A stretch of 64,000 bases of DNA from assembly GCA_043719295.1 (NCBI GenBank), contig JAYSUD010000007.1, positions 891-64,890 on the forward strand, in the 5' to 3' direction. The DNA comes from a bacterium. Lineage in GTDB: Bacteria; Patescibacteriota; Minisyncoccia; Phycocordibacterales; UBA918. Positions 1 through 55,131 of the stretch are shown here, piece after piece; the first letter of the stretch is position 1; each line of letters begins with the position of its first letter. The notes beneath the pieces are model-generated. The model saw only the letters and a list, made by a program, of their open reading frames with translations, was not told the DNA's origin and searched no databases. Made by a program: the position numbers and the translations under genes.

Positions 1-3000
1 TATTACGAGATTGTTTGAGGGAGGATTAACTACTGTATTGTTTACGGTTACGGAAATTGGTGCTGCGTCTTGAATGTTTCCCGCTGCGTCAACTGCACGT
101 GCACTGATAATGTGCGCACCATTTGCAACACTCGCACTATTCCATAAAAATGTATACGGTGCTGTTGTATCTTGTGAACCTACAACGTTACCATCAATGA
201 GTAATGTTACACCTGTAACGGCAACATTATCTGAAGCAGTTGCGGTAATGGTTGTTGTCCCTGAAACAGCAATGCCCACACTTGGTGCTACGATAGATAC
301 AGTTGGAGAAATTGTATCTGCTGTAGAAGTTGCACCGGGTCCAGACACACTAACATCATCAATAATAAGTGTACCGTTACCAGCAATTAGATGGAAAAGG
401 GTCATCGATACTACTCCAGTTGGTGGAGTAAAGGTACGACTCATTGTTGCCCAAGTTCCACCAGTTGTAGGTAGTGCTTGCAGAAACTGGTACTGCGAAG
501 CACCGCTAGTTGTCGTGTAACGGATCAGTGCTTCAGAACCAATTGTACTGTTGTACTTGTCACTTATTGTATATTCCGTTCCAGGTGCTACTGGAACATC
601 ATTGAAAAACCATTTTGCATCTCCGTTAGTGTAGCCACTGATAGTGACCGAGGCAGCACTACCAGAGTAACCTGTAGTTGGATACGTAAACACACGGTTG
701 TTTGTTCCCCATCCACCACGGTTCCAGTTTTGGGGGTTACCTGTTGTGCCTAGCGTTTCAAACCCTGAGTTTAGTACTAAGTTACCACCTGCCGGAGGTG
801 TAGTTGAGCTTATATTATTCACCGTGACAAGTCTCTCAACCTTATCGTTATTTCCGTAAGGATCATGTGAAGTGGCTTTTATCACATAATCACCATCTGG
901 ATAAGCTGTTGTGTCCCAAACTACTTCATAAGGTGCAGTAGCGTCTTCAACTCCATGCAACACACCATTAATTGCAAAGTAAACTCCGACTACAGAAGTA
1001 TCATCACTACTCGTTGCTACTAAGGTTACTGTTCCTGAAAGTACATCCCCAACATTTGGATAGACAAAATTAACTCGTGGTGCATTAATTTCTGAAGGAG
1101 TACCAGTACCAGTTGCGTATAATTCAACGTTATCAATAGCCAGAATTGCTTCAGAACTAATGAGATGGAAAAAGGTAATAGTTTCAGCTCCCACAGGTGG
1201 TACAAAAGTCTTCTCTAATTGAGTCCATGAATCAGTTGGTTGAATTTCCTTTATGAGACCAAAATGATGATCTGAACCGTCAGCAAAAGTGTATCGTCCA
1301 ATGATGTCAGAGATTGAGTTGGACTTATACATGGTTCGATATGTATATTCGGTACCAGAATCGACTGGTACCGAAGTGTGTACCCAGCGAGCATCTCCAG
1401 TATCACCATATTCATAGTCTGTAATTACTACCTGTATAGCAGAACCGCCACCCACACCGGTTACAGGATAAGTAAATTCACTCGTAAGAGTTCCGAATCC
1501 TCCAGGTTGCCAACCAAGTGGATTAAGACCGTTAGCTATTTCAAAATCGCCATTTTGTATAAGATTTGGTAAATTATTATTTCCGTTATCTATACTGACT
1601 GTGATTGAGGGAGTGTCAGTTGTATTTCCTGAGGTATCACTAATTCTTGCTGACAGAGCGTAATTACCGTCAGTTAAAGCGGTAGTATCAAACTGCAACG
1701 TATAGGGTGCCTCAGAATCATTAACTCCAACTGGATTACTGTCTATATATAATTGAACTGAAGCTACGCCAATATTGTCAGTAGCATCAACTCCAACTTG
1801 AGTTACATTGGAAAGCACTGATCCCGATGTAATATTGTTAATAATTCCTGATGGAGGCATCACGTCACCACCATTAGTTAAAGTGAGAGAAAAATCATCA
1901 ATTGTTAGTCTTCCATTATTTGCTAATTCATGGAAGATAGTTGCTGTCTCTACTCCAGCTGGAACAATAAAAGTAAAGGTATTGCGAGTTGGCTGTGATA
2001 CAGGTGGTACTACAGAAAGAAATAGATATTCGGTAGTTCCATTTGTCCTCACAAATTGAACAAGTACATCAGTTGGTGCTGTTGCCGTATACAGGTTTGA
2101 AAATGTATAACTTTCTCCCGGAGTCACAAACGCTGGCGAAGAGAGCCATTTGGCGCTACCTGATTCGTAGTTAGTAACGTTGATTTCAGCCGCTTTGGCA
2201 CCAGCATAGCCCACAACCGGATATGTAAAGATTGGATTCATCACACCGTACCAGTTTTGATACCAATCAAGCGGCGATGTTACAAAGGTTCCTTCAATCT
2301 CAACTGACGGATTAGTTACTAAATTACCAGAGCCAATACCATTATTTAGGTACAAGTTAATGCTCTTACGGTTAGATAAGCCATTACTATCGAGTACAGT
2401 TAGGATAACCTCCACATAAACATCATTAGCAGTATGGTCGTCGGCAGGAAACCTAATTGAAGTTGTACCATTTGCTTGATAGATACTATGGGTATGCACA
2501 TTATGGTGCAAAACAACTTCCCAAGAAAATGCGCTCGGAGGAATAATACCATCTTCAGGATCAGTTCCTTCACCACGTACAGTAATCATACCACCTGAAA
2601 CATATAGTGAACCACTAGAGGGAGTAGTAATTTGAGCCTGCGGAGACTGATTACCGACGTAGATGGTGGTACTTTCTGCTACAGCTGAACCAAGACTATC
2701 AGTCACTACTAACGACGCATTGTAAGTACCATTAACTAAATAAGTGTGCGAAGGATTAGCAGCAACCGAAGTGCTCCCATCGCCGAAAGTCCAAGCATAA
2801 GTCATTGGATTGCCGTCTGGGTCATAGGTGCCTAAACTTGAAAATGAAACATTTAATGGTGACAGACCAAAAATAGGATTTGCATTTAGCAAAACAACCG
2901 GACGGCGGTTACCATCAGTATGAGTTATCCTATTAAGATTACCAAAAACAATATCAATGTAGTAGACATTGCCATCAGGACCAGTAATAATTTCTACTGG

Positions 3001-4731
3001 GAAGATATCTGTATTAAAATCGTCTAATCCAATTACAGCGGTACCGGAAGCATTAAGCTCAAGACGCTTCATCCACATTTGAGAATAATCACCAATAAAA
3101 AGCGAATTATTATAGATTGAGGGATAGACTCCATTATCTGGAAATGATCCGGCTGTTATAGAACCCGCTCCTGAGGCATTGTGAGGGTATGTATAAACTG
3201 GATTAATGTGCAAAGAAGTAGTCTCACAACCATAACTTGTCGCGAAGTCTCCTTCCCGACATGGCCAACCATAGTTACCTCCCGGTACTATCCGATTAAT
3301 TTCTTCCCAACTACCCCAACCGACATCGCCTACATACAGCTGTCCTGTGGTTGGGTGAAAGTTAAATCTGAAAGCATTTCTTAGACCAAGTGCATACACT
3401 TTTGATCGATTTGAATTAGGATCCCCATTATAAAATGGATTGTCAGTAGGAGCTGTTCCATCTGTGTTAATGCGGAGTATTTTACCTGCCAAAGCATCAA
3501 TATTTTGAGCTCGAAGCGCACGAGGATCAACAGTAACAAAATCAGCACCATCCCCCAAAGTTGCATACAGTTTTCCATCAGGACCAAACCGCAAGCCTCC
3601 AACACTGTGACTGTTTGAGTCCGAGGCTATACAGTCGTCAGTTACTAATAAATCTTCACAGGATGGAGAGTCGATTGAGCCTCCGTCACTACCAACTAAA
3701 ACAAACTTACTTGACTCACTGGCAACATCACCCACGACTGTAAGTCTTACAATTCGACCAGTTTTTGGACCAGCTACATTAACACCAGGAGTGTTTTCAT
3801 AAGTGTATAACGCATAAATATAGCCATTGATAGAGAAATTTGGATCAACAGCCAAACCTAAAAGACCACGGTCACCGAAATTATTAACGTCAGTGAGAGT
3901 AACTAACGGCTCAGGCAGTAATATGTCATTTTTAATAATCCTTATCGAGCCTCCTTTTTCAGCAATTAAAATCCGCCCATCTGGTGTAAACGCTGCAGCA
4001 GTTGCTAAAGCAAAACCTTCTGCAACTACTACACTCTCAAATCCAGGCTCCACAATTTGTGCTTCAGCCCACAAAGGTAACGAAAACATCACAATTCCGA
4101 CAACGATACCAAGCGCAACCGGCAAGGCTAACGAAATGCTTACACGAAGTGTAGAACTAAGACTTCGTATAGGTTCAATCTTCGGAACCCTCTTGAGGAA
4201 AAAATTCTGAATTGGCACTGTTTTAGACTGAATCTGTAAAATTCCTTTTTGAATTGTAGTACCGAACGCACTAATAAAAGACACAAACGTTTTATAGGAT
4301 CGTATGAGTGTCGCATTATTCATAGTGATACGGATTGACTCATTAAGTTTATTCCTGTTTTTAGAGAATAGCCAGACCATCAGGACTCCAAATATAAACA
4401 CTAAAACCATTGGGTATTGTGGTAATACCATAATAAGTTCAAAAAACTTTCCAAAATAGTATTTATATAAGATAACTTGTGGTTCATCTGCTCCAACTTT
4501 TAATGCAGTACCAATAGCAATCGAACCAAGCATAAGCATATAACTACTAACAAAAAGCAAAATTGCGTACGAAATAAGCTTGTTTACAAATTTATTTCTT
4601 ACTATACCCCCATCTTTATTATAAGTCTGGTAGGCTGAGCGATGACCTCTACCGCGTAGATAGTTTAAAATCTTGGCTGAAATGATAATAGCCAAGTGAA
4701 TAAATACAGATAATCCGAAAATTGGTATCAT
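1..4731 (-). CDS. Giant cell-surface protein, partial (ORF continues beyond window start; >1570 aa in window). N-terminal TM segments, glucose/sorbosone-dehydrogenase-like (SGDH/PQQ-type) beta-propeller, PKD domain, then at least three CBM4_9-like + bacterial Ig-like repeat units
   Basis: Hand translation of minus strand from ATG (4731-4729): MIPIFGLSVFIHLAIIISAKILNYLRGRGHRSAYQTY... Frame checked codon by codon at 4621-4731 and at 61-120 (…GAHIISARAVDAAGNIQDAA); no stop seen. Absent from supplied ORF track because no in-window stop. Motifs read: GGSIRIIKNDILLPEP/GDRGLLGLAVDPNF (SGDH-like propeller), PLNVSFSSLGTYDPDGNPMTYAWTFGDGSTS (PKD), repeated NGDFE…(CBM-like) followed by APY…WDTT…DG.Y…A.D..GN (Ig-like). 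Supplied track has only short ORFs across 1-4737, consistent with one long minus-strand reading frame. Confidence 0.75.
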   Translation of the reverse strand, partial: MIPIFGLSVFIHLAIIISAKILNYLRGRGHRSAYQTYNKDGGIVRNKFVNKLISYAILLFVSSYMLMLGSIAIGTALKVGADEPQVILYKYYFGKFFELIMVLPQYPMVLVFIFGVLMVWLFSKNRNKLNESIRITMNNATLIRSYKTFVSFISAFGTTIQKGILQIQSKTVPIQNFFLKRVPKIEPIRSLSSTLRVSISLALPVALGIVVGIVMFSLPLWAEAQIVEPGFESVVVAEGFALATAAAFTPDGRILIAEKGGSIRIIKNDILLPEPLVTLTDVNNFGDRGLLGLAVDPNFSINGYIYALYTYENTPGVNVAGPKTGRIVRLTVVGDVASESSKFVLVGSDGGSIDSPSCEDLLVTDDCIASDSNSHSVGGLRFGPDGKLYATLGDGADFVTVDPRALRAQNIDALAGKILRINTDGTAPTDNPFYNGDPNSNRSKVYALGLRNAFRFNFHPTTGQLYVGDVGWGSWEEINRIVPGGNYGWPCREGDFATSYGCETTSLHINPVYTYPHNASGAGSITAGSFPDNGVYPSIYNNSLFIGDYSQMWMKRLELNASGTAVIGLDDFNTDIFPVEIITGPDGNVYYIDIVFGNLNRITHTDGNRRPVVLLNANPIFGLSPLNVSFSSLGTYDPDGNPMTYAWTFGDGSTSVAANPSHTYLVNGTYNASLVVTDSLGSAVAESTTIYVGNQSPQAQITTPSSGSLYVSGGMITVRGEGTDPEDGIIPPSAFSWEVVLHHNVHTHSIYQANGTTSIRFPADDHTANDVYVEVILTVLDSNGLSNRKSINLYLNNGIGSGNLVTNPSVEIEGTFVTSPLDWYQNWYGVMNPIFTYPVVGYAGAKAAEINVTNYESGSAKWLSSPAFVTPGESYTFSNLYTATAPTDVLVQFVRTNGTTEYLFLSVVPPVSQPTRNTFTFIVPAGVETATIFHELANNGRLTIDDFSLTLTNGGDVMPPSGIINNITSGSVLSNVTQVGVDATDNIGVASVQLYIDSNPVGVNDSEAPYTLQFDTTALTDGNYALSARISDTSGNTTDTPSITVSIDNGNNNLPNLIQNGDFEIANGLNPLGWQPGGFGTLTSEFTYPVTGVGGGSAIQVVITDYEYGDTGDARWVHTSVPVDSGTEYTYRTMYKSNSISDIIGRYTFADGSDHHFGLIKEIQPTDSWTQLEKTFVPPVGAETITFFHLISSEAILAIDNVELYATGTGTPSEINAPRVNFVYPNVGDVLSGTVTLVATSSDDTSVVGVYFAINGVLHGVEDATAPYEVVWDTTAYPDGDYVIKATSHDPYGNNDKVERLVTVNNISSTTPPAGGNLVLNSGFETLGTTGNPQNWNRGGWGTNNRVFTYPTTGYSGSAASVTISGYTNGDAKWFFNDVPVAPGTEYTISDKYNSTIGSEALIRYTTTSGASQYQFLQALPTTGGTWATMSRTFTPPTGVVSMTLFHLIAGNGTLIIDDVSVSGPGATSTADTISPTVSIVAPSVGIAVSGTTTITATASDNVAVTGVTLLIDGNVVGSQDTTAPYTFLWNSASVANGAHIISARAVDAAGNIQDAAPISVTVNNTVVNPPSNNLVI

Positions 4732-10833: not shown

Positions 10834-10950
10834 GTGAGGTATTTCTTTTTCTACTGGAGTATTTTCGCTCGTAGGAGTTGACATAAGACGCAAAATATAT
10901 CATAATCATCACCTAATTGCAACTTGCATATCTAGCTGAAACAAGGTTTT

Positions 10951-11152
10951 CAGAAACGAGTGCAATTCGAGGCGGGCAAAGAAATTTTTACGAGGTGTGA
11001 GAAGTGACTGAATGTCACTTCGCAAGACTCAATGAGACAATTCGTAACGAAGTGGAGAAGAGTCCATTAAGTGGACAGCTTCGGTACGAAGAGTTGTAGT
11101 ACATTGAGAAAAAATTTCTGTAGGCCAACGAAGAAGTGTGCCGTTTGTGGAA
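10951..11152 (+). repeat. Intergenic repeat element copy R1 (longest form; 5', middle and 3' modules all present)
   Basis: CAGAAACGAGTGCAATTCGAGGCGGGCAAAGAAATTTTTACGAG … GAGAAGTGACTGAATGTCACTTCGCAAGACTC … ACGAAGAAGTGTGCCGTTTGTGGAA; related copies at 24085, 26191, 38481, 43103, 44470, 50037(rc), 54270, 54996. Confidence 0.6.
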
Positions 11153-11164
11153 ATCTAACATACT

Positions 11165-11913: not shown

Positions 11914-11940
11914 AGTCCGAGGTCCGACCTCGGACTTTTA
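11914..11940 (+). terminator. Rho-independent terminator hairpin (AGTCCGAGG tccg ACCTCGGACT + TTTT) after rsuA
   Basis: Perfect 9-bp stem read in sequence followed by T-tract; a near-identical palindrome recurs at 20557-20576. Confidence 0.5.
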
Positions 11941-11960
11941 AATATTTAAATAAATGAAAA

Positions 11961-17835: not shown

Positions 17836-17922
17836 GGAGAGTTCGCATAGTGGTCTAGTGCACTGCCTTGGAAAGGCAGCATCGGGGCAACCTGATCAGG
17901 AGTTCAAATCTCCTACTCTCCG
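17836..17922 (+). tRNA. tRNA-Ser (anticodon GGA), long variable arm
   Basis: Acceptor GGAGAGT/ACTCTCC, 3-bp D-stem, anticodon stem CTGCC/GGCAG with loop TTGGAAA (GGA), 18-nt variable arm, T-arm AGGAG-TTCAAAT-CTCCT, discriminator G. Confidence 0.85.
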
Positions 17923-20543: not shown

Positions 20544-20591
20544 AGTATGTTCAAAAGTCCGAGGTCGGACCTCCTCACATGCCAAGACAGC

Positions 20592-21356: not shown

Positions 21357-21410
21357 AAATTGAATTGGTAAACATCAAAAAACTGACACCCTGTGTCAGT
21401 TTTTTGATAA

Positions 21411-22310
21411 TTACACATCCATCTCGCGTAAAATCTTGATACGGTCTTGAGCCGGTGGGTGTGTTTGGAAGAGGCTTGAGATTTTTTGCATGATACCTCG
21501 TTTGTCATTTCCAAATGGGTCTGCGATAAATAAGTGTGCAGTAGCGTTATTTGCACGAACCATTGGACGTGATGACGCTGCAATTTTTTCAAGCGCCGAT
21601 GCTAAGCCCTCTGGATAACGGGTCAACATTGCTCCCGACACGTCAGCTAAGTACTCACGCTTTCGTGATATAGCAAGCTGAATCATTTGTGCTGCAATAG
21701 GTGCCAAAATAATCCCTATAACTCCAAGGACCAAGAGGACCACACCTGCTTTATTATCTCTATCCCCTCCTCCCCACATCATTGAACGCATGAGCATGTC
21801 CGCTACAATTGCGACAAATCCTGCAAGCACAACAGCAACTGTAGAAACAAGCATATCTTTATTACCAACGTGTGCAAGTTCGTGAGCCATCACACCTTCT
21901 AACTCAACTCTATTGAGAATCTGTAGCAAACCAGTTGTGGCACACACTACCGCATGCTCAGGATTACGTCCTGTTGCAAAGGCATTTGGCGCAGGATCGT
22001 TCACGACATACACCTTGGGCATCGGTAGCCCGGCTGTAATAGAAAGATTTTCAACAATGTTGATGAGATCACGATGAATGTTGATGTCAGCAGGAACGGC
22101 TCCAGTCATTTTCAATACAAGTTTATCAGAAAACCAATAGCTACCCACATTCATTAATAGTGAAAACACTATCGCAATATACATAATCGACGGATTGCCA
22201 TAAATGGCACTTGCAATGTACCCAATTACCACTATAATCACAAAAAACATCGACATTAACAGCCATGTTTTTCGAATATTACTCCCCTGATGTGTATATA
22301 AAGTTCCCAT
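21411..22310 (-). CDS. htpX: Zinc metalloprotease HtpX (peptidase M48)
   Basis: HELAHVGNKD (HExxH), N-terminal TM helices, conserved M48 downstream Glu region; 299 aa. Confidence 0.85.
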   Translation of the reverse strand: MGTLYTHQGSNIRKTWLLMSMFFVIIVVIGYIASAIYGNPSIMYIAIVFSLLMNVGSYWFSDKLVLKMTGAVPADINIHRDLINIVENLSITAGLPMPKVYVVNDPAPNAFATGRNPEHAVVCATTGLLQILNRVELEGVMAHELAHVGNKDMLVSTVAVVLAGFVAIVADMLMRSMMWGGGDRDNKAGVVLLVLGVIGIILAPIAAQMIQLAISRKREYLADVSGAMLTRYPEGLASALEKIAASSRPMVRANNATAHLFIADPFGNDKRGIMQKISSLFQTHPPAQDRIKILREMDV

Positions 22311-24067: not shown

Positions 24068-24084
24068 AGAATTAATAGAACTTT

Positions 24085-24194
24085 TAGAAACGTGTACAAT
24101 TCGAGGCGTGCAAGTTAAATATGACGAGGTGTACGCATAGTACATAGAGGAATATTTTACGCAGCACAACGAAGAAGTGTGCCGTTTGTGGAAG
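24085..24194 (+). repeat. Intergenic repeat element copy R2 (5' module + 3' module)
   Basis: …GTGTACAATTCGAGGCGTGCAAG…CAACGAAGAAGTGTGCCGTTTGTGGAAG. Confidence 0.55.
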
Positions 24195-24201
24195 TTCTAA
24201 C

Positions 24202-24579
24202 TTATTTCAAAATCCCCTGCGGTGTCTCATTACTCTTATACGCTCCATCTTCAGACCAAGAAAGAAAGTGACGCTTTGTATAAAATCCTTTTGCTGTGAC
24301 ATTTTCTGTCATTGCATTTTTGATATCTGCCTCACTAAATTCAAGTTGTTTGGTCAATGCATCAAGAACCACCATTAAGTCGGCATATTCTTGAAGGAAC
24401 TCCTCTCTTGAACGAGTGTGTGCAAGAGAACTTGCTTCTTCTCGTACTTTCTTTAGAAGTTCCTGTTGAAATTCTGCATCATCAGTAATCACCCGAATCT
24501 CGCACGCTTCACCTTTAGATTCAATTCGTTCCTTAATATCGTCTCTAACTAATTTATTATAGTAGACTCGATTTGTCAT
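24202..24579 (-). CDS. MazG-like nucleotide pyrophosphohydrolase (putative)
   Basis: 125 aa; EEASSLAHTRSREEFLQEYADLMVVLDAL resembles EExxE/D…D MazG/HisE-type NTP-PPase motifs; moderate. Confidence 0.45.
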   Translation of the reverse strand: MTNRVYYNKLVRDDIKERIESKGEACEIRVITDDAEFQQELLKKVREEASSLAHTRSREEFLQEYADLMVVLDALTKQLEFSEADIKNAMTENVTAKGFYTKRHFLSWSEDGAYKSNETPQGILK

Positions 24580-25348: not shown

Positions 25349-26023
25349 ATGAGCAATAGTGAAGTAGGACGTGTAGAAGAACTGACTCTGATAACACGTA
25401 ACACAGATCTAGCAAAAAGATTTGAATTGCAAGTCGAGACTGAAAACATCAAAGCTTGCAAAGTGAGTGGAATCATACCAGACAAAACATATCAAGGATG
25501 CATCATCTTAGGTCATGACCTTGTTATGCAGTACTTAGACCGTAAACAAACTCTGATTAATGCAAACCGTATTGTTGTCTATCACGAACAGGGTACACCT
25601 GATGATGAGATTAATTTCATAGATTTACCATTTGGCTGCTACGTACGAGGACAACTCTCCTGCCGTTTGCTGGAGATTCGTTTGAGAAACATTCTAAAAA
25701 ACATAGTCACTAGTGATTCTGCTATAGAAGATGCCTTTCTTACTTGTAATGGGTTCAGCTTTTATCCAGAACGTGCAAAGCTTTACTTTAAGGATGGAGA
25801 GATTGCTCTAACTGTCAAAGAAATAGGTGTTCTTCGTCTCTTGATGTCATCGAAAGGAGCTATTATCAGTCGCGATCGGTTCTTAGATGCGATATATCCA
25901 GATGACAACATCTTACCTCGGACAGTCGACTGTATAATAAAAAAGCTGCGTGCCAAAATACGCAAAATTAGTGATGTCGAACATATTGAGACAATCTATG
26001 GCATAGGATATAGAATGGAATAG
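25349..26023 (+). CDS. OmpR/PhoB-type winged-helix transcriptional regulator with atypical (non-canonical receiver-like) N-terminal domain
   Basis: C-terminal trans_reg_C pattern (…SRDRFLDAIYPDD…RTVDCIIKKLRAKI…IETIYGIGYRM); N-terminal ~120 aa lacks DD/D/K receiver residues in canonical positions; no histidine kinase nearby. Confidence 0.65.
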   Translation: MSNSEVGRVEELTLITRNTDLAKRFELQVETENIKACKVSGIIPDKTYQGCIILGHDLVMQYLDRKQTLINANRIVVYHEQGTPDDEINFIDLPFGCYVRGQLSCRLLEIRLRNILKNIVTSDSAIEDAFLTCNGFSFYPERAKLYFKDGEIALTVKEIGVLRLLMSSKGAIISRDRFLDAIYPDDNILPRTVDCIIKKLRAKIRKISDVEHIETIYGIGYRME

Positions 26024-26091: not shown

Positions 26092-26190
26092 ATACAGATT
26101 TTTTTAATTACACGATATTGATTTTCATATTAAAAAAGAACAATACTCGTGTATTGTTCTTTTTTAATCTTTTATACAATAAAAGCTCAT

Positions 26191-26290
26191 AAATCGAAGT
26201 GGGTACGAGGCGCACAAAGAAATTTTTACGAACCCTACATGCTGTAGGTCGAGTGAAAATTTACTGCAGCACAACGAAGTAACCGACCGA
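26191..26290 (+). repeat. Intergenic repeat element copy R3 (degenerate 3' module) between convergent regulator and groEL
   Basis: …GGGTACGAGGCGCACAAAGAAATTTTTACGAACCCTACATGCTGTAGGTCGAGTGAAAATTTACTGCAGCACAACGAAG…. Confidence 0.45.
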
Positions 26291-26304
26291 TTTTAAGTTT
26301 TTAT

Positions 26305-27957
<1,653 letters not shown>

Positions 27958-31271: not shown

Positions 31272-33308
31272 ATGGAACAAAATAATCACAACGCACAAAC
31301 ACCGCGACCTACATCAGCTCCTTCACGAGGAACTACTCCCCACGCACCGCGACGACAGTACGCAGGCGCTTCACAACCATCAAGTCGGAGTACTTCATTT
31401 ACACGGCGTCCGTATGGAGCACAAACACCACGGCAAACAACGGGAGCCGCTCCTTCAACAAACCCTCACCAAAGAACTACCGGTGAGCGAACTTCACGAA
31501 CTACAGGTGCGCCGAAGCGAAGTCGTGGACGTAAAGATAACAACAGAGGACGAAAATCAATGACCAATCCTGCGTTAAAGCACCGGATGAACATCAAAGA
31601 TGAAAAAACACCAGTACTTGTAGAAGTAACCGACGAAGATACAGTTCGAGTAATCCCTATGTCGGGAGTTGAGCAAATTGGTCGGAACATGACCATTGTT
31701 GAAACAAAAGATGATATCCTCATCTTCGATATTGGATTCCAATTCATCTCACCTGAAAGTAACGCGCCAGGAGCTGACTATATTCTTCCAAACACCCAGT
31801 ATCTTGAAGAACGTCGCCATAAAATCAAAGGGCTTATTGTTACCCACGGTCACCTCGACCACATTGGAGGTATTCCGTTTGTTATGGAACGAATTGGTAA
31901 CCCACCAATTTACACACAATACCTAACGTCATTGATGATCCTCAAACGTCAAGAAGAATTCCCCCACATGGAACCAATAACAATGCACGTTATCAAAGAA
32001 GGTGATTCTTTTGTTGTAGGTAACACAAAAATTAAGTCTTTCCCTGTAACCCACTCTATTCCTGACGCAATGGGGATTTCTGTTGAAACAAAGCATGGAG
32101 ATATTGTTATTACCGGAGACATTAAACTTGTTCATGAGAATGGAGTTGTTGTCGTTGAAGAACGAGAAGCATGGGAAAAAGTAGGACAAAATAAAAACAT
32201 CATGCTGGTGTGTGATTCAACCAACGCCGATCAAAGTGGTTTCTCAGCACCTGAAGGAGTAGTATTCAAAAGTATTGAAGAAATCATTACTAACGCATCA
32301 GGCCGTTTGATTGTTGGTACCTTCTCCTCACAATTTGACCGCTTAACAAATATCATTAGAACCTGTGAGAAGCTCGGAAAAAAAGTTGTGCTTGAAGGGC
32401 GAAGCATGAAGAACAATATCGACATTGCAATAGTGGCAAAACTTTTAATTGTTGATCCCAAAGTGTTCATTAGTGCAAATGACATGCCAAATTATCCAAG
32501 TGATAGAATTGTTATCCTTACAACAGGAGCCCAAGGCGAAGAAAATGCAGCACTCATGCGTATGGCAACTGACAAACATAAATTTGTGACGCTAAGTGAG
32601 AGAGATACGCTAGTACTTTCCTCTTCAGTTATTCCAGGAAATGAAGTTGCAGTCCAAAAGCTTAAAGACAATATTTACCGTAAAAACGTTCGCGTGATTA
32701 ACTACAAGTCTGCAGCAGTGCACTCTTCAGGACACGGTAACGCCTCTGAGCTTGTATGGGTACATCAAACAGTAAAGCCAACATTCTTACTTCCTGTTCA
32801 TGGACACCACTACCACCTTAAGAGTCATATGTACGTTGCAATTGAAAATGGTTTCAAACGCGAAAACATTGTAGTACCTGATAACGGAACTATCATCGAT
32901 ATTAAAAACGGAACTGAACTTACTGTTCACAAAGACAAAGCACCAAATGAAATAGTGCTTGTTGATGGATTTACCGTTGGAACACGACAAGAAGTTGTGC
33001 TACGAGACCGTATTTCCCTTTCAGAACAAGGTATGTTTGTCATTATTGCGACCATCAATACAAAAACAGGAAAACTCCGAAAATCACCAGACATTATTTC
33101 TCGAGGATTTGTCTACTTACGAGAAAGCCAACAACTACTCTCAGAAGCACGTATTTTAATTAAGAAAACGGTAGAAAAAAACACAGAGCGAATGAACCCT
33201 ATTGACCTCGATATTGTCAAAGAAGAACTTTCTGATGTGGTAAGTTCGTTCTTAATGCAGAAGACGCAGAAGTCACCGATGGTTATTCCAGTGTTAATTG
33301 GGATTTAG
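31272..33308 (+). CDS. rnj: Ribonuclease J (metallo-beta-lactamase/beta-CASP) with ~110-aa basic low-complexity N-terminal extension
   Basis: VTHGHLDHIGG (HxHxDH), beta-CASP and C-terminal domain order; N-terminal R/T/P/S-rich extension. Confidence 0.9.
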   Translation: MEQNNHNAQTPRPTSAPSRGTTPHAPRRQYAGASQPSSRSTSFTRRPYGAQTPRQTTGAAPSTNPHQRTTGERTSRTTGAPKRSRGRKDNNRGRKSMTNPALKHRMNIKDEKTPVLVEVTDEDTVRVIPMSGVEQIGRNMTIVETKDDILIFDIGFQFISPESNAPGADYILPNTQYLEERRHKIKGLIVTHGHLDHIGGIPFVMERIGNPPIYTQYLTSLMILKRQEEFPHMEPITMHVIKEGDSFVVGNTKIKSFPVTHSIPDAMGISVETKHGDIVITGDIKLVHENGVVVVEEREAWEKVGQNKNIMLVCDSTNADQSGFSAPEGVVFKSIEEIITNASGRLIVGTFSSQFDRLTNIIRTCEKLGKKVVLEGRSMKNNIDIAIVAKLLIVDPKVFISANDMPNYPSDRIVILTTGAQGEENAALMRMATDKHKFVTLSERDTLVLSSSVIPGNEVAVQKLKDNIYRKNVRVINYKSAAVHSSGHGNASELVWVHQTVKPTFLLPVHGHHYHLKSHMYVAIENGFKRENIVVPDNGTIIDIKNGTELTVHKDKAPNEIVLVDGFTVGTRQEVVLRDRISLSEQGMFVIIATINTKTGKLRKSPDIISRGFVYLRESQQLLSEARILIKKTVEKNTERMNPIDLDIVKEELSDVVSSFLMQKTQKSPMVIPVLIGI

Positions 33309-33462
33309 TTTAAACTTCCAAATTCGGCGCATTTCTTCGTTGCCTCACTCATTTGCTCCCGCGCAGTAGAACTACTACAGCTTGGTCGCAAGCCTCGCTT
33401 GCGCCTCGAACTACATCCAAATTTGAAAGTTTAAAAAACTTAATCTTTATACATAAATTAAA

Positions 33463-33490
33463 ATACTATTGCTTAGCAATGGTATTTTTT
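33463..33490 (+). terminator. Candidate terminator hairpin (TACTATTGC ttag GCAATGGTA + TTTTTT) downstream of rnj
   Basis: Imperfect 9-bp stem with T6 tract, ~155 nt after rnj stop. Confidence 0.35.
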
Positions 33491-33616
33491 GTAGGGAGGT
33501 TTGTAGTTTCGACAATTACTATAGACAAAACAAATTTATAGTTATATTGTTCGGGCAGCCTAAGCCAAGAGGCTTCAATAAGTTCTATAAACATAACCTG
33601 AAGAGGAGTAACCCTA

Positions 33617-38466: not shown

Positions 38467-38480
38467 AGTTTTATTAGATT

Positions 38481-38600
38481 AGACGTTCATAGGTGCCTTA
38501 GATACGCGAAGTACAAAGAAATTTTTTGGAGATGTGCAAGGGCACATTGACAAAAAATTTCTGTAGTACGACAAAGTAGCTAAGGTGCATATGAACGTCT
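38481..38600 (+). repeat. Intergenic repeat element copy R4 bounded by ~21-bp imperfect terminal inverted repeats (AGACGTTCATAGGTGCCTTAG … CTAAGGTGCATATGAACGTCT)
   Basis: TIRs 17/20 Watson-Crick + 2 G-U; core ACAAAGAAATTTTTT…AAAAAATTTCTGTAG shares modules with R1/R3/R7. Confidence 0.55.
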
Positions 38601-39282
38601 ACAGTTCGTAAATTACGTCCTTTCGCTCTACCACCACCTTCCAATCTCGCTTCTTTGCTTCATTAAATAGACCATTATTTGGATTAAAACAAATTGGAAT
38701 TGCAACTGACTTTAGTAGTTCAATATCTCCTTCTGTATCACCAACCCCAATTGAATCTTCCGTAGTCACATCTTCTTTTTCGAGTACTCGCGCAACAATG
38801 TTTGCTTTATTTTCAACAAGGTGCACATCAACCATGATTCCCGTAAACAAGTCTTGTGGGCCAATTTCATAAATCCTCCCATACACTTTGTTGAATCCAT
38901 AATCCTTGCAAAACTCATCTAAAATTGTTTTTGGAGATTGTGAAATTGCTACAAGGTAATAGTTGTCACGCTTGAGTGTTGCAATGAGGTCGCGGGTATA
39001 TCGATACACATAGTTACCTTGTTCTGATACAACCAGCTTCCCCACATCAGCAAGATCTCCATAGTGTATGCCTTTGATGTGAACGATGTATGATGCGACA
39101 ACGGCTTTAATATACGCGTCATAGGTTCCCTCTCTATTTCTCCATGCGTGATACTCTTTGACATACCCATCTTTAGCTTTTTTAGGAAAGATACCTTCTT
39201 TAATTAAAGCTTCCATAAGTTCAATTACTAAACTTGAACGAAACAGAGTTCCATCAATATCAAAGAAAGCGACTTTTTGCAT
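38599..39282 (-). CDS. HAD-superfamily hydrolase, subfamily IB (phosphoserine phosphatase-like)
   Basis: FFDIDGTLF (motif I), …SQSP (motif II region), GVGDTEGDIELL (motif IV). Confidence 0.75.
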   Translation of the reverse strand: MQKVAFFDIDGTLFRSSLVIELMEALIKEGIFPKKAKDGYVKEYHAWRNREGTYDAYIKAVVASYIVHIKGIHYGDLADVGKLVVSEQGNYVYRYTRDLIATLKRDNYYLVAISQSPKTILDEFCKDYGFNKVYGRIYEIGPQDLFTGIMVDVHLVENKANIVARVLEKEDVTTEDSIGVGDTEGDIELLKSVAIPICFNPNNGLFNEAKKRDWKVVVERKDVIYEL

Positions 39283-43059: not shown

Positions 43060-43102
43060 ATAATGATGAATTATATTTTCATAGAATTATTAGCAGAATC
43101 AA

Positions 43103-43247
43103 CAGAACGAGTGCAATTCGAGGTTAAATAGTGACTTAATGTCACTATTTAAAAGGTTGTCGATATTTTGTTAAAAATATCATACAACCTTAACCGTTCA
43201 TGTAATGAAGAAAAGAAACATGAAAAGAAGTGTGCCGTTATGTGGAT
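43103..43247 (+). repeat. Intergenic repeat element copy R5
   Basis: CAGAACGAGTGCAATTCGAGG…AGTGACTTAATGTCACT…GAAAAGAAGTGTGCCGTTATGTGGAT. Confidence 0.5.
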
Positions 43248-43430
43248 TCTATTTTACAACGTATTCTACAGGTGCCTGCAAAATACTTGCCATCAAAACG
43301 CCGAGTAAAATGAGGAACAGTGCTGCACAAAAAAGTGCAATTTTGGGAAACGAAGGCTCCATCTTGCCCGAATGCCAATTTCGAGAGAAAAGAAATGAGA
43401 ATACAAACTGAAATATTGACATAGTAACTT

Positions 43431-44432: not shown

Positions 44433-44469
44433 TAAATTTATTTATTTCATGTATAGGACTTTTGTAAGT

Positions 44470-44592
44470 GAGTGAGAAGTGATATAAAATCACTTTGCAA
44501 GAGGTTACCTGCTCTTTTGGAAAAAGAGTGATAACCTGAACAGTTTCTGTAAGAAACTAGAGAGACGAAGAAGTGTGCCATTTACGAAAGTC
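44470..44592 (+). repeat. Intergenic repeat element copy R6 (middle hairpin module + 3' module)
   Basis: GAGTGAGAAGTGATATAAAATCACTTTGCAAGAGGTTACCTGCTCTTTTGGAAAAAGAGTGATAACCTG…GACGAAGAAGTGTGCCATTTACGAAAG; nested hairpins readable. Confidence 0.55.
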
Positions 44593-45531
44593 CTAAGTAA
44601 ATAGTATCACGAAGCCAACAGTAATAATGGCTATATACACCGACTTCCTCATAATTGTCTTAAAGTCGAATTCATTTTCTCCTGCAGCATGCGGGATAAA
44701 CCGTCCAACAAGGAGACTCAAAAGAATGATAAACGCGAACTTAAGTCCATCAAGTGCCTGCACGACTGCAACATCACCTAAGTCAGTAGCTTTAAGCAAC
44801 ATGAACGCTGCTGCTCCCGCAAGCACTTTTGTAATAAGTACAATCCATCCTGTTTTCTTCGAAGTCTTAGCAGTAGCTGCAGTAATTTCGTCATAGTATG
44901 AAGGTACTAACAAAAGAGAAAGCGCAAAAAGTACAAACCCAATCCGTGACCAGAAGAAACCATCAGCAAAACTCGTTTGCTCGAAAAGTCCTTTCATCAC
45001 GACGTAGTGTAATGCAAAAAAGAGACCACTGTGCACGATATGGAGAATCAGACTCCGATTACCTTTTAATCGCACGTGTGAAAGAAGGAGTGTTCCCAGA
45101 CTTAATAGTCCAATACCCCACAAAAAATGAGGTGCTAGTGGAATGTTAAAGAACAGATACGCCAGCCCAAAAGAAGATATTGCAGAGATGGCACCAATTG
45201 CCGGCATCACGTCTGAAGCATCTTGGTGTTTAAGAGCATCAAACATAGACACGAGTGCCATGAAGAAGGTGTACGCAGCTAAAAACGACATAGCTACCAC
45301 TTGGATAGATGGTTTTTGTACGTCAGCTAAACTTGGAATACCAATTGCATGAAGCCCTGGGATGAACGCAAGTATAAAAATCACCACCCAAAACCCCGTC
45401 ATCAAACATGAATAAAAAGCATACACAAAAGGACGAGGAAGCGCTTTCTCGTCAGAGACAATATATTTATCCAAAATCGCAACAATAGCGTTCAGGAATT
45501 GCCCAGCTGTCGCAAGAATAATCCAGTTCAT
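44593..45531 (-). CDS. Polytopic membrane protein (EamA/DMT-like, ~10 TM)
   Basis: Repeated hydrophobic helices throughout 312 aa; family assignment tentative. Confidence 0.45.
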   Translation of the reverse strand: MNWIILATAGQFLNAIVAILDKYIVSDEKALPRPFVYAFYSCLMTGFWVVIFILAFIPGLHAIGIPSLADVQKPSIQVVAMSFLAAYTFFMALVSMFDALKHQDASDVMPAIGAISAISSFGLAYLFFNIPLAPHFLWGIGLLSLGTLLLSHVRLKGNRSLILHIVHSGLFFALHYVVMKGLFEQTSFADGFFWSRIGFVLFALSLLLVPSYYDEITAATAKTSKKTGWIVLITKVLAGAAAFMLLKATDLGDVAVVQALDGLKFAFIILLSLLVGRFIPHAAGENEFDFKTIMRKSVYIAIITVGFVILFT

Positions 45532-49980: not shown

Positions 49981-50036
49981 TCACCCATAGTAGCAAAAAA
50001 GAAGCTTCAGAGCTTCTTTTTTTCTTGGTATAACTT

Positions 50037-50181
50037 AGTACTTACGCAAACGGCACATTTCGCCTCACTATCTCTTACAGAGACTGTCCACTCATTGGCT
50101 TTTATTCCACTTCGTTTCATAAAACCTCAATGAGTCTTGCGAAGTGATGTAAATCACTTCTCACTCGTTTGCGTAAGTACT
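50037..50181 (-). repeat. Intergenic repeat element copy R9 (inverted orientation) bounded by perfect 16-bp terminal inverted repeats AGTACTTACGCAAACG … CGTTTGCGTAAGTACT
   Basis: Reverse complement aligns with R1 middle/3' modules (GAGTGAGAAGTGATTTACATCACTTCGCAAGACTCATTGAG…CGAAGTGGAATAAAAGCCAATGAGTGGACAG…GGCGAAATGTGCCGTTTGCGTAAG). Confidence 0.6.
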
Positions 50182-50185
50182 ATGA

Positions 50186-51454
50186 CTATGCAATTTTAAT
50201 CTTAACGAGTTGCTCCACGCGCCGTATATCAGCAAGTAATTTTGAACGATCTGCATTATATAAATAAAGCAAAAATACTGCTCTCCCCCCTTTCCGTGCA
50301 AAAGTTGCTCTGTCACCAATTTTTTTATTGACTTTTATTTCGTAAAAAGATTCTAACTGCTCAATTTTCTTAATTCCTTTCATCTCAGTAATAACTCCTT
50401 CTTTTGGCAGGAACCATTTCATGTACACACTATTTCCAGTACATTTCTTTGGAATAATTGGTTTTCTTGGGATTCGTATGAGAATATCGTTTAAATAATG
50501 TTCGATACCGCAACTGAGGTTATAGATAGTATCTCGCGCACCTCCCGTTCGTGGACCCACTTCAATTACTTTCCACTCAGTATCAATTTTCATAAGTTCC
50601 GTATGGGCAGTGGTACTTCGTAATGCCAGTGCATGAATTGCAGTTTCAGTGACAGACTGTGCTTTTTTAACCGTATCACCTTTCAAGATTGTTGGTGTCA
50701 TCTGCGTATATCCATAAAAATCATGATGTCCAATATCTTTTCCAGTTTTTACTCGTACTAACGGCAAGTGATACACGGTGCCACGTGAATTTACATAACT
50801 ATCAATTGAGTACATGTCTCCTTCCATATACTCTTCTGCAATCACTTTCGGCTCTTCCATTCGCTTATCCTTTTCATACGCTGTTTTAAGTTTTCTAAAA
50901 CAAGTTGAGACAGCTTGCTTGAGATCATCTTCGTGGTAACAGATGCTTACAAATAAACTACCTGACATACTCGCAGGTTTTACAATCATTGGAAATCCAA
51001 TTTTTGTGACTACTCTTAGACGCTCAGCAGCAGTTGCATCTTTCACTTTAGTGAATTTCGGAGTTATCTTCGGATCATACAACTTGAAACGTTTTCGCAT
51101 CTCATACTTATCGGTCGCCCAACGTAACGACTCACTTGTTGGAGTTCGAAGATACGGCACACAGGGTACAATTCTTGCAAATCGAGCAATATGCTCTTCA
51201 CTACGGCAAGATATCGCTAAAAGCTCATCCTCAAAAGGTAAGAGTGCTTCACTTATTTTTTCAGGTTTTGAAAAATCTACTTTGATTAAAATATCATGCT
51301 GAGGCACCTTATAGACAACAGGATATTTTATATCCTGAATGAGCATGATGCGAAATGGTGTCCCGTGTTTTTTACCATACGCGCGAATATCACCAACAGA
51401 ATTGGGTTTTAAACCACCAACAAAAGCAATGATATTTTTATGTTTTTTGCTCAT
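50186..51454 (-). CDS. ATP-grasp domain enzyme (L-amino-acid ligase/carboxylate-amine ligase-like, ~420 aa)
   Basis: pre-ATP-grasp + ATP-grasp pattern: …GFPMIVKPASMSGS…, …VIAEEYMEGDMYSIDSYV…, …ELMKIDTEWKVIEVGPRTGG…. Confidence 0.65.
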   Translation of the reverse strand: MSKKHKNIIAFVGGLKPNSVGDIRAYGKKHGTPFRIMLIQDIKYPVVYKVPQHDILIKVDFSKPEKISEALLPFEDELLAISCRSEEHIARFARIVPCVPYLRTPTSESLRWATDKYEMRKRFKLYDPKITPKFTKVKDATAAERLRVVTKIGFPMIVKPASMSGSLFVSICYHEDDLKQAVSTCFRKLKTAYEKDKRMEEPKVIAEEYMEGDMYSIDSYVNSRGTVYHLPLVRVKTGKDIGHHDFYGYTQMTPTILKGDTVKKAQSVTETAIHALALRSTTAHTELMKIDTEWKVIEVGPRTGGARDTIYNLSCGIEHYLNDILIRIPRKPIIPKKCTGNSVYMKWFLPKEGVITEMKGIKKIEQLESFYEIKVNKKIGDRATFARKGGRAVFLLYLYNADRSKLLADIRRVEQLVKIKIA

Positions 51455-52594: not shown

Positions 52595-53461
52595 ATGAAA
52601 AAAATTATTTTACTTAACGGTGGCAGTAGAACGCGTCGGGCATTCAACGAAGGAGTTGGTGATGCAAAGTTTATACCGCTTCGAACCAAAGGAATGATAG
52701 TGCACATTAACAAAGATCAGGGCGTTGCCTTTATATACAAAAATGACAAAGTAGATTTTACAGATTCATTTGTGTTTACTCGGCTTCGTGCAAATGATGC
52801 TCATTTTTGCGGAATTTTATATGAACACCTAAAGGCACTTGGCGTTCCCGCATTAGATCCTATCAATCTTTCATTTAAATTGTCAGAAGAAAAGATATCG
52901 CAGATGCCACGCCTTGCACGTGCGCACATACAAATTCCAGCAACAATAATTGCACAAGAGGAGTCATACGAATCTAACAAAGAGTACATACAAAAGCACA
53001 TAACCTTTCCTTTGGTATACAAAACAGATGGTAGCCAAGGTAATGCGGTATTTAAAATTAACTCTGAGATAGAGCTTGAAGCAAAAATAAAAATTAAAAA
53101 GAAAAATGAGCTTTTTATACTTCAAGAACTAATACCAAACACATTTGATACACGCACTATTGTTGCATTTGGTACGGTACTTGGTTCTATAAAACGAAGT
53201 GCCCAAAACGGAAACTTTTTAAACAACGTCGCACAAGGTGGACTTGTTTCAGCTTACGAACTAACTGATACTGAGAAAGAAGTGGCACTTTTGGCATCAA
53301 AAATAAATGGTATTGATTTTGGAGGCGTTGATATCATCCATACAGAACGCGGCCCTATTGTACTTGAAGTAAATAAGGCACCTCAAATCACAGGCTTTGA
53401 AAAAATTCATGGAGAGAACTTTGTTTTTAGGACAATCGCTCAAATGCTAGAAAAGATGTAA
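52595..53461 (+). CDS. ATP-grasp ligase, RimK-like (second tandem copy)
   Basis: FPLVYKTDGSQGNAVFKI, …TRTIVAFGTVLGSIKRS…, GGVDIIHTERGPIVLEVNKAPQ; 7 nt after previous gene. Confidence 0.65.
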   Translation: MKKIILLNGGSRTRRAFNEGVGDAKFIPLRTKGMIVHINKDQGVAFIYKNDKVDFTDSFVFTRLRANDAHFCGILYEHLKALGVPALDPINLSFKLSEEKISQMPRLARAHIQIPATIIAQEESYESNKEYIQKHITFPLVYKTDGSQGNAVFKINSEIELEAKIKIKKKNELFILQELIPNTFDTRTIVAFGTVLGSIKRSAQNGNFLNNVAQGGLVSAYELTDTEKEVALLASKINGIDFGGVDIIHTERGPIVLEVNKAPQITGFEKIHGENFVFRTIAQMLEKM

Positions 53462-53506
53462 CGAAAAAACCGCCACAGGCAGTTTTTTCGTTATTATAAA
53501 TTAACT

Positions 53507-54190: not shown

Positions 54191-54269
54191 ATGACTATTC
54201 TACCTTCTTTTTTAACCGATTAACAACTTGACGTTGCACCTTAGTGATAGTGCGAGAATTTGAGACTTT

Positions 54270-54383
54270 CAGAAATGAGTACAATTCGAGGCGGGCTAAA
54301 GAAATTTTGCGAGCCCTACTTGCTGTAGGGTGAGAAAAAAATCTTGTAGCCCAACAAAGAAGTTGTGCCATTTATGGAAGTCG
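54270..54383 (+). repeat. Intergenic repeat element copy R7 (5' module + small hairpin + 3' module)
   Basis: CAGAAATGAGTACAATTCGAGGCGGGCTAAAGAAATTTTGCGAG CCCTAC ttgctg TAGGGT GAGAAAAAAATCTTGTAGCCCAACAAAGAAGTTGTGCCATTTATGGAAG. Confidence 0.55.
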
Positions 54384-54386
54384 AAG

Positions 54387-54914
54387 CTATTGGACTATAA
54401 GTTTCCCAACCATCCCACTAGTACGATGACTACCGACTGAACAATAGTATTCATAGGTTCCTTTTTTATCTGCTACAAACGTTGCGGAAGTCTTCACTCC
54501 TGGCTGTACACGCTTTGTAGCAACGGCAAATTCATCGATAACAACGTCATGGAACCCATCAGTACTTTCAAAATTGATAGTTACTGTATCGCCTTCTTTG
54601 ACTACAATTTCTTCAACATCATATCCAAAGTTGACCCCCTTTACCGTGAACACTTGTGCAGTAGGGTCAAGAGTGACTGATGGTTGTTTTACTGCATCTT
54701 TTGGTACCACAATAGATTGCTCAGTGTTTTGATCTTCATTTTGCATCGCTTCAACATCTGAATTTTGCATCACCGTACCATCTGGCATCAGATGAGAATC
54801 TGAAGGTACAACTATAGGAGTCTCTGTTTGAGTCTTCGAATAATATTGCGCAAATGCGAAGTATCCTCCCCCTCCTATCAAAAGCAACGCCAGAATGATA
54901 TATAGGTATTTCAT
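54387..54914 (-). CDS. Cupredoxin (plastocyanin/azurin-like type-1 blue copper protein), secreted/anchored
   Basis: …FHDV… (His) and C-terminal YEYYCSVGSHRTSGMVGKLIV (Cys-x4-His-x4-Met ligand set); N-terminal signal/anchor. Confidence 0.7.
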   Translation of the reverse strand: MKYLYIILALLLIGGGGYFAFAQYYSKTQTETPIVVPSDSHLMPDGTVMQNSDVEAMQNEDQNTEQSIVVPKDAVKQPSVTLDPTAQVFTVKGVNFGYDVEEIVVKEGDTVTINFESTDGFHDVVIDEFAVATKRVQPGVKTSATFVADKKGTYEYYCSVGSHRTSGMVGKLIVQ

Positions 54915-54995
54915 ACTATGTAATCGATTAAATAATACCTACTATACCATAATCTAATAAACCTAAATTAATGTGATTTTGACCATAGTCCTTTC

Positions 54996-55130
54996 ACAAA
55001 CGAGTGAGAAGTGACTAGATGTCACTTCGCAAGAGGTTGCCTACTCTTTTGGAAAAAGAGTGACAACCTGTACAGTTCCAGTAGGGAACAAGAGAGTCTA
55101 CAACGAAGAAGTTGTGCCGTTTGTGGAAGG
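54996..55130 (+). repeat. Intergenic repeat element copy R8 (middle hairpin module + 3' module), near-identical architecture to R6
   Basis: CGAGTGAGAAGTGACTAGATGTCACTTCGCAAGAGGTTGCCTACTCTTTTGGAAAAAGAGTGACAACCTG…CAACGAAGAAGTTGTGCCGTTTGTGGAAGG. Confidence 0.55.
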
Positions 55131-55131
55131 G

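Follow-up and report, generated by a model that had tools for sequence, protein, structure and literature searches.

The window, that is, the whole 64-kb stretch of DNA analysed here, carries groEL at 26305–27951 on the minus strand. The closest named relatives of the encoded GroEL, at about 83% identity, are from Candidatus Kaiserbacteria, Nomurabacteria and Paceibacteria, and the host of the repeat family described below is therefore a CPR/Parcubacteria bacterium with a reduced genome. Relatives used for comparison include L010, which has a GroEL 91% identical to that of the window and is syntenic with window 17–43 kb, and L223, whose cupredoxin is 74% identical to the window protein. The only Rfam 15 match above the gathering threshold in the window is a tRNA gene of 87 nt with a long variable arm (17836–17922, plus strand). 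A very large ORF (1–4731, minus strand, >1577 aa) runs off the window and a 3721-aa gene is found in the relative (L010:18911–21656); these giant ORFs resemble the surface-protein-type genes typical of CPR genomes. Canonical bidirectional intrinsic terminators, with an A-run, a GC-rich hairpin and a T-run, are located at 26116–26181, 21361–21421, 33460–33491 and 53457–53493, indicating that the host uses ordinary terminators and that the repeat elements lie upstream of them. A 27-nt inverted match of 93% identity (GAGGTCCGACCTCGGACTTTTAAATAT) occurs at 11919–11945 and 20547–20573, both intergenic and far apart, and possibly represents another small repeat of hairpin or terminator type.

Ten copies of one repeat family are present in the window, together making up about 1.4 kb, or about 2.2% of its length. 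Nine of these loci had been listed as related in the original prediction. Their relationship was confirmed by a repeat search of the window, which placed the reported loci together in families of direct and inverted repeats, and by nhmmer profiles of three modules, which gave E-values of 1e-13 to 1e-2 and no window match outside the reported loci. The 5' module was matched at 10951, 24086, 54270, 43105 and 26206, the hairpin module at 10997, 44472, 55004 and 50164 (minus strand), and the 3' module at 11126, 24167, 55101, 54353, 44564, 43223 and 50061 (minus strand). The 3'-end pattern had 5 matches in the window versus 0.26 expected from shuffles. When covariance model R1 was run on the window without filters, a tenth copy was added. 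The nine loci had been placed correctly; their ends, however, lie 7–20 nt further out on each side than first given, reaching into a TA-flanked terminal inverted repeat.

The elements are imperfect palindromes of 120–215 bp, and no ORF of at least 60 aa lies wholly inside any copy. They end in imperfect terminal inverted repeats of about 15–17 nt (consensus GGACTTACGCAAACG / CGTTTGCGTAAGTCC), which are perfect in c7 and several loci. Counted at a fixed alignment column, at least 14 of 37 distinct copies have TA on both sides, as do most of the high-scoring copies. Since TA...TA is self-complementary, the flanking TA could partly be an extension of the stem. GA on both sides was found in two independent cases, c8 and the orthologous pair L035/L082. 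All copies contain the conserved helix GUGCA-A-UUC / GAA-G-UGUGC with two fixed wobble pairs. Type A (c2 and c8, and the degenerate c3, c4 and c10) is one long stem, in which an invariant 5x6 internal loop (GAGGC / AACGAA) is followed by a helix of 3–4 bp; the upper part consists of the AAAGAAAUUUUU / AAAAAUUUCU helix, a tandem-GA loop (CGAG / UGAG) and an apical hairpin. In type B (c6, c9 and c7), the interior is a three-hairpin junction instead of the long stem. The interiors can be combined, as in the composite of A and B in c1 and the further mixture in c5. The family thus has at least two conserved interiors and is modular, in agreement with the hairpin-forming modular interiors first proposed. 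A short form of about 78 nt at L076:8342–8420 has the family's 5' end in perfect form (TAGGACTTACGCAAACG) and a minimal interior that differs; it adjoins the stop codon of an opposite-strand gene and comes after a canonical terminator.

The canonical A-type copy c2 (24076–24199, plus strand) has the ends TA-GAAC...GTTC-TA and scores 134.2 bits with the covariance model. It lies 2 nt from the TAA stop of a 125-aa gene (24202–24579, minus strand), antisense to that gene. The other canonical copy, c8 (54262–54384, plus strand, 117.4 bits), has GA...GA flanks and is located 4 nt past the TAG stop of a cupredoxin gene (54387–54914, minus strand). The degenerate A-type copy c3 (26180–26303, plus strand, 76.6 bits) has the groEL stop (26305–26307) on one side and the bidirectional terminator at 26116–26181 on the other. 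Nearby, a Trans_reg_C (winged-helix response-regulator-like) gene on the opposite strand (25349–26023, plus strand) separates groEL from lemA; groEL is directly followed by lemA in L010 and L013, so the Trans_reg_C gene is a local insertion beside c3. Two further copies are A-type variants. c4 (38480–38601, plus strand, 70.8 bits, fold −61.6 kcal/mol) sits inside the stop codon of a HAD-hydrolase gene (38599–39282, minus strand), with TA flanks at 38480–38481 and 38600–38601. c10 (33310–33434, minus strand), which is the added copy, was matched by the model at 33305–33437 on the minus strand (64.6 bits, E 1.5e-13). It extends from the TAG stop of RNase J (31272–33308, plus strand), to which it is antisense, and the canonical terminator at 33460–33491 comes next.

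Among the B-type copies, the terminal CTA of c6 (44454–44595, plus strand) is the TAG stop codon of a 312-aa gene (44593–45531, minus strand), and the terminal CTA of c9 (54986–55134, plus strand, TA...TA flanks) is the TAG stop of a 490-aa cohesin/Ig-like gene (55132–56604, minus strand). c7 (50036–50182, minus strand) has a perfect 16-nt terminal inverted repeat (TAGTACTTACGCAAACG) and lies 3 nt past the stop of an ATP-grasp gene (50186–51454); it is the sole sense copy between tandem genes in the window. The composite c1 (10944–11156, plus strand) has the A-type outer stem and AAAGAAAUUUUU helix around a B hairpin and a second hairpin. It lies between divergent genes, in the 5' UTR of a pseudouridine-synthase gene identified by Pfam (ATG at 11165). 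A short-read contig of the window organism starts inside c1 (L001:1–64), so the family probably fragments assemblies of these genomes. In c5 (43095–43250, plus strand), three internal hairpins, of which one is B-like, lie between a 5' end of type A and a 3' end of type C; this copy folds at −53.8 kcal/mol and is weakly matched by the covariance model (15.6 bits). The second hairpin of c9 (55038–55061, minus strand) matches the 13-nt conserved tail of Rfam DUF805b (AAAAGAGUAGGCA) with E 0.11, a match that is far under the gathering score in a 201-nt search and is probably due to chance.

The predicted folds of the copies range from −27 to −78 kcal/mol, with z-scores down to −12.9. RNAalifold on 16 type-A copies gave 42 pairs, 23 of them with compensatory double changes. 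When 37 distinct copies were aligned to the model, 93.2% of cells were paired and 38 of the 42 pairs had changed on both sides; these covariation figures are somewhat inflated, as the alignment was fitted to the model, and the margin is large. None of 500 shuffles reached the observed pairing values, and pairing fell to 36–45% when the partners were slid by 1–3 columns. For type B, 20 of 46 pairs were compensated. The pairing of AAAGAAATTTTT with AAAAATTTCT, which the original prediction had described as closing a long stem, corresponds to helix 4, where all 9 of 9 pairs have compensatory changes. A K-turn reading of the basal loop was rejected, as covariation backs the RNAalifold pairing instead, and a likeness of one apical hairpin to group II intron domain V was not kept across copies.

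In every copy, the strand that runs from the 5' to the 3' module folds much better than its complement. The fold energy of c2 is −48.1 kcal/mol (z −7.9) versus −27.6 kcal/mol (z −3.0) for the complement, that of c1 is −78.3 versus −53.3 kcal/mol, and the covariance model gives 134 bits forward versus 29 bits reverse. G·U pairs outnumber A·C mismatches by 129 to 17, or by 56 to 16 without three fixed wobble positions; 23 individual sequences have more G·U than A·C, and 2 have more A·C than G·U. Such an excess of G·U over A·C indicates that one specific strand has been selected to fold. Mutation bias is an unlikely cause, because the folding strand is locally C-rich, which is the opposite direction. 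Part of the G·U excess is inheritance from master copies and not of independent origin, and the excess is concentrated in the outer stem, while the inner helices show no asymmetry (G·U 7 versus A·C 11). The type-A internal loops are invariant between lineages 15 points apart in GC content. Of the elements in the orthologous pair L035/L082, one is 84.7% identical, similar to its flanks (73–85%). In contrast, the other is only 59.7% identical between flanks of 75–85%, and both of its members still fold (95 and 75 bits), which suggests either that compensatory change was accelerated or that another family member took its place.

These features would be expected if the main role of the family lay in a functional structured RNA, or in a single DNA strand that folds, formed by the 5'-to-3'-module strand, with mobility as a mere means of spread. 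An antisense or small RNA family, or a protein-binding RNA with invariant GAGG loops, would be examples. The one-sided folding, the G·U excess against the local composition, the invariant loops and the diverged L035/L082 element that still folds all agree with this explanation, which is compatible with a mobile element and places the selected function at the level of nucleic-acid structure. As the main account of the family, however, we consider it unlikely. Because the folding strand of most copies runs antisense to the neighbouring gene, its transcription would require a promoter of its own, and no conserved promoter was seen in the element or beside it. The 3' end is not terminator-like, the inherited part of the G·U excess and the symmetric inner helices also count against this account, and the existence of related genomes entirely without the elements argues against an essential host function.

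The mobility of the elements is supported by filled and empty sites. The empty site of c4 is found in L010:2960–2985, where the end of the HAD gene reads GAACTA TAA TCCACT ATG. The filled site in the window reads GAACTG TA-GACGTTCAT...ATGAACGTC-TA ATCTAAT...ATG. When the element and one TA are removed, the junction TAATC is identical to that of L010, indicating that c4 was inserted in the TA of the stop codon and that the TA was duplicated. The TAG stop of the HAD gene now consists of the duplicated TA and the first G of the element. In L223, the spacers corresponding to the c9 and c8 sites (69 nt and 77 nt) contain no element, and both junctions are spanned by the alignment of the flanks. At c9, the second TA is followed by T, versus the G expected for a simple insertion into TAG, and the only base-exact empty site is that of c4. 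At the c3 site, L010 has no element and L013 has a very different variant between flanks 88–90% identical to the window. In the region around the gene beside c2, L010 contains two paralogous small genes (L010:12383–13267; 123 and 124 aa) where the window has one (24202–24579); c2 and the L010 copy are not orthologues, as the L010 copy lies between the paralogues and c2 lies after the single gene. Exact-protein look-ups for strain-level insertion polymorphism returned only the same organism or nothing.

Dispersal of the family, as originally claimed, is seen in two copies in other contigs (L061:1781–1908 and L076:10094–10220), which are 94.5% identical and share no homology in their flanks. The copy load differs between lineages, with 10 copies in the 64 kb of the window, 1 in 21.6 kb of L010 and 0 in 31 kb of L223–L226. 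The genes next to the elements have unrelated functions (HAD hydrolase, glycosidases, cupredoxin, cohesin/Ig, ATP-grasp enzymes, DsbA, GroEL and RNase J), so the family is not tied to a pathway.

The position of the elements relative to genes was counted for 42 copies with callable neighbours, using a simple ORF caller and including some orthologous pairs. In 30 of 40 cases, the element's 3' end points towards the 3' end of a gene on the opposite strand, and the facing stop codon is usually 0–10 nt away. The gene contexts were convergent in 11, divergent in 2, tandem antisense in 16 and tandem sense in 4. The contexts are therefore varied, as the original prediction stated for its copies in every kind of intergenic region, but they are not evenly used, with gene 3' ends favoured. 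A stop codon is abutted by the 3' end of the element in about 22 cases and by the 5' end in 2, that is, where an element touches a stop codon, its folding strand is nearly always antisense to the gene in question. In c4, c6, c9 and c10, the terminal TA is common to the element and the stop codon. Promoter-like extended −10 boxes of the downstream gene are found beyond the other end of the element. An outward promoter composed of a −35 TTGCAC and the duplicated TA as the start of a −10 box was considered and rejected, as lineages differ in the hexamer and no −10 boxes are present.

Long stable hairpins directly after stop codons could also be immobile 3'-end structures that the host evolved at these sites, either as terminators or to stabilise mRNA. 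This can hardly be the explanation. No U-tract follows either strand, and the canonical terminators come after the elements at groEL and RNase J, so that the element is part of the 3' UTR and the reading as an intrinsic terminator was rejected. Furthermore, the mRNA strand is not the better-folding one, near-identical copies stand at unrelated loci, filled and empty sites exist, and some copies, such as c1, lie in 5' UTRs. A riboswitch-leader reading was also tested and set aside.

REPINs are long hairpins with compensatory changes between their arms, as are the elements here, and belong to systems with a single-copy Y1 (RAYT) gene flanked by the repeats. If the family were REPIN/REP-like and moved as single-stranded DNA hairpins through a Y1 (HUH) transposase of the RAYT type, the better folding of one strand and the placement at gene 3' ends would fit as well. 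A Y1_Tnp gene is in fact present in a related lineage, in an IS200-like insertion sequence (L224:73–618) in which the 153-aa Y1_Tnp gene (122–583) lies between direct copies of the hairpin CCCCGYATGCTTGCATCGGGG. These hairpins, however, are its own and unrelated to the family, the 31-kb neighbourhood contains no family copy, and no Y1 gene was found among the scanned window proteins. A 2-bp target duplication with a clean empty site is not expected for HUH single-strand transposition. Local GC skew failed to separate replication-linked from transcription-linked orientation, because the skew follows gene direction; where the two are separable, the orientation follows the genes, since c10 flips with the genes and the GC skew stays negative. 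Mobilisation of this kind is thus very unlikely. The broader initial description of the family as MITE-like or REP/Correia-like is accordingly supported for its MITE/Correia-like part by the inverted ends, the TA flanks and the filled and empty sites, and its REP-like part is less likely. An integron attC origin was rejected, as the ends GGACTTACGCAAACG / CGTTTGCGTAAGTCC lack the R'' (RYYYAAC) and R' (GTTRRRY) core sites, and the flanking genes are housekeeping genes (groEL, RNase J) as opposed to arrays of promoterless cassettes.

Taken together, the elements are probably non-autonomous DNA transposons (MITEs) of a Parcubacteria (CPR) lineage. Bacterial MITEs are shorter than 200 bp, have terminal inverted repeats, TA termini and a target duplication, and form long stem-loop transcripts (PMC2229807). 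The family corresponds to this description in its size, non-coding nature and copy number, its terminal inverted repeats, its target duplication and its long predicted stem-loop. A transposase encoded elsewhere would recognise the ends of the element and paste it into a TA. The insertions that survive would be those in, or a few bases from, a stop codon, where the TA and the first G of the element would rebuild a TAG stop because the element begins with G. With the stop codon on one side and the terminator of the gene or the promoter of the following gene on the other, the element would do little harm and would be co-transcribed within the 3' UTR or the intercistronic RNA. We infer that the transposase is of the DDE type, IS630/Tc1-mariner-like or IS5-like. 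No such partner turned up: the search for an autonomous transposase, which had been proposed with the original prediction, found none with matching ends in the window (Pfam on 20 proteins) or near orphan ends in the fetched loci.

The position of the elements is what insertion into TA, followed by selection within a compact genome, would be expected to produce. In contrast, a symmetric TA target gives no reason to expect the orientation bias. Selection rather than targeting would explain both position and orientation. The folding strand carries three GAGG (Shine-Dalgarno-like) motifs, and this strand or its motifs may be deleterious on an mRNA. Our best guess is that the strongly folding strand would be harmful when it is part of an mRNA, which would account for the orientation bias. 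Other features are less easily reconciled with simple cut-and-paste transposition. An IS630/mariner enzyme with a strict requirement for TA would not give rise to the GA...GA flanks of c8 and L035/L082. Neither the orientation bias of about 22:2 nor selection for pairing on one strand follows from cut-and-paste transposition by a DDE enzyme, and inverted repeats that serve as a transposase binding site would be expected to be conserved, not covarying. Selection of one strand to fold, together with its antisense placement, could mean that CPR bacteria possess a new class of structured RNA, such as an antisense, protein-binding or ribosome-binding RNA, or that a folded single strand is transposed in a fixed orientation; either outcome seems doubtful at present. 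Single-strand insertion in a fixed orientation beside stop codons is not known for TA-duplicating MITEs.

As MITEs, the elements are closest in kind to the Correia, RUP and BOX families, and there is no sequence match to Correia, BOX or Rfam. In the window-wide Rfam search only the tRNA passed the threshold, and a search with two elements at E up to 10 gave at best 14–15 bits versus thresholds of 35–88. The original suggestion that the family was not previously described is consistent with these results. Correia elements (CREE/NEMIS) of Neisseria are similar in being non-coding, about 100–155 bp long, with terminal inverted repeats and a TA target duplication at the termini (PMC2229807). They also form a long stem-loop in the transcript, which is predicted for the present family, have variants that differ by an internal segment, and make up about 2% of the DNA (PMC2229807). 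Unlike Correia, the family belongs to a different phylum, has a strong antisense orientation bias and adjoins stop codons, and no IHF site or outward promoter was found in it. The Correia inverted repeat had 0 matches at up to 3 mismatches.

RUP of pneumococcus is a MITE of about 107 bp with TA insertion and terminal inverted repeats, for which mobilisation by IS630-Spn1 is proposed (PMC2229807). The family resembles RUP in its TA insertion and its terminal inverted repeats, and mobilisation in trans by an IS630-type enzyme would be of the same kind as that supposed here. In contrast, RUP has a candidate partner with matching ends, which was not found for this family, and RUP copies are highly similar, whereas the window copies are old (60–85% identical) and covarying. 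BOX elements of S. pneumoniae and S. suis consist of a 5' module, a variable hairpin middle and a 3' module, with end modules that pair, and often supply the stop codon of the adjacent gene, as does the present family (PMC3049150). Pneumococcal or S. suis BOX was the first guess, from the GC content of about 40% and the modular build, and was rejected because GroEL is of CPR/Parcubacteria type and BOX A is absent; the BOX A1R sequence had 0 matches at up to 3 mismatches. Unlike BOX, the family has a TA duplication and an empty site, and its host is a CPR bacterium, not a streptococcus. ERIC/IRU elements of enterobacteria are likewise imperfect palindromes in transcribed intergenic regions, with internal-insertion variants and an orientation that matters for the effect on neighbouring mRNAs (PMC2229807). 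They have no sequence relation to the family and have short terminal inverted repeats (7 bp), and no stop-codon association is reported for them in the text consulted (PMC2229807).

Beyond the window, a metagenome scan with the 3'-module pattern returned at least 120 loci. Among the 120 listed loci, about 33 distinct bona fide copies were found on roughly 20–25 low-GC contigs (36–53% GC), often 2–3 per contig. One of the contigs (L093, 53% GC) is Kaiserbacteria-like and encodes a NusB-Nudix protein that shares 90% identity with one from Ca. Kaiserbacteria, and an unrelated metagenome contig (L065) carries a B-type copy. In the genome collection, the 3'-end pattern gave 4 chance matches only; this pattern fixed variable outer-stem bases and was too narrow, so that the result tells little about how widely the family occurs. 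In viral contigs, the 3' module had 0 matches, and the 5' core had 89 matches, equal to the estimated chance number and none of them accompanied by the 3' module. A literature search on repeats in Parcubacteria, CPR or Patescibacteria found nothing relevant.

The elements are a new family of a well-known kind, in a phylum for which none was found described. Two of their features are unusual and well supported, namely the strand-specific structural selection and an association with stop codons that depends on orientation. The genomes of CPR/Patescibacteria are small and usually called poor in mobile DNA; here, a MITE family takes up about 2% of 64 kb, and it is common to Kaiserbacteria-like and other Parcubacteria contigs. 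Covariance model R1 and its alignment would permit annotation of the family, which could also be useful for marking strains. An insertion that enters the TA of a stop codon and regenerates TAG would be a safe landing in a compact genome, and the strand-specific covariation together with the orientation bias raises a testable question on the interplay between the elements and transcription.
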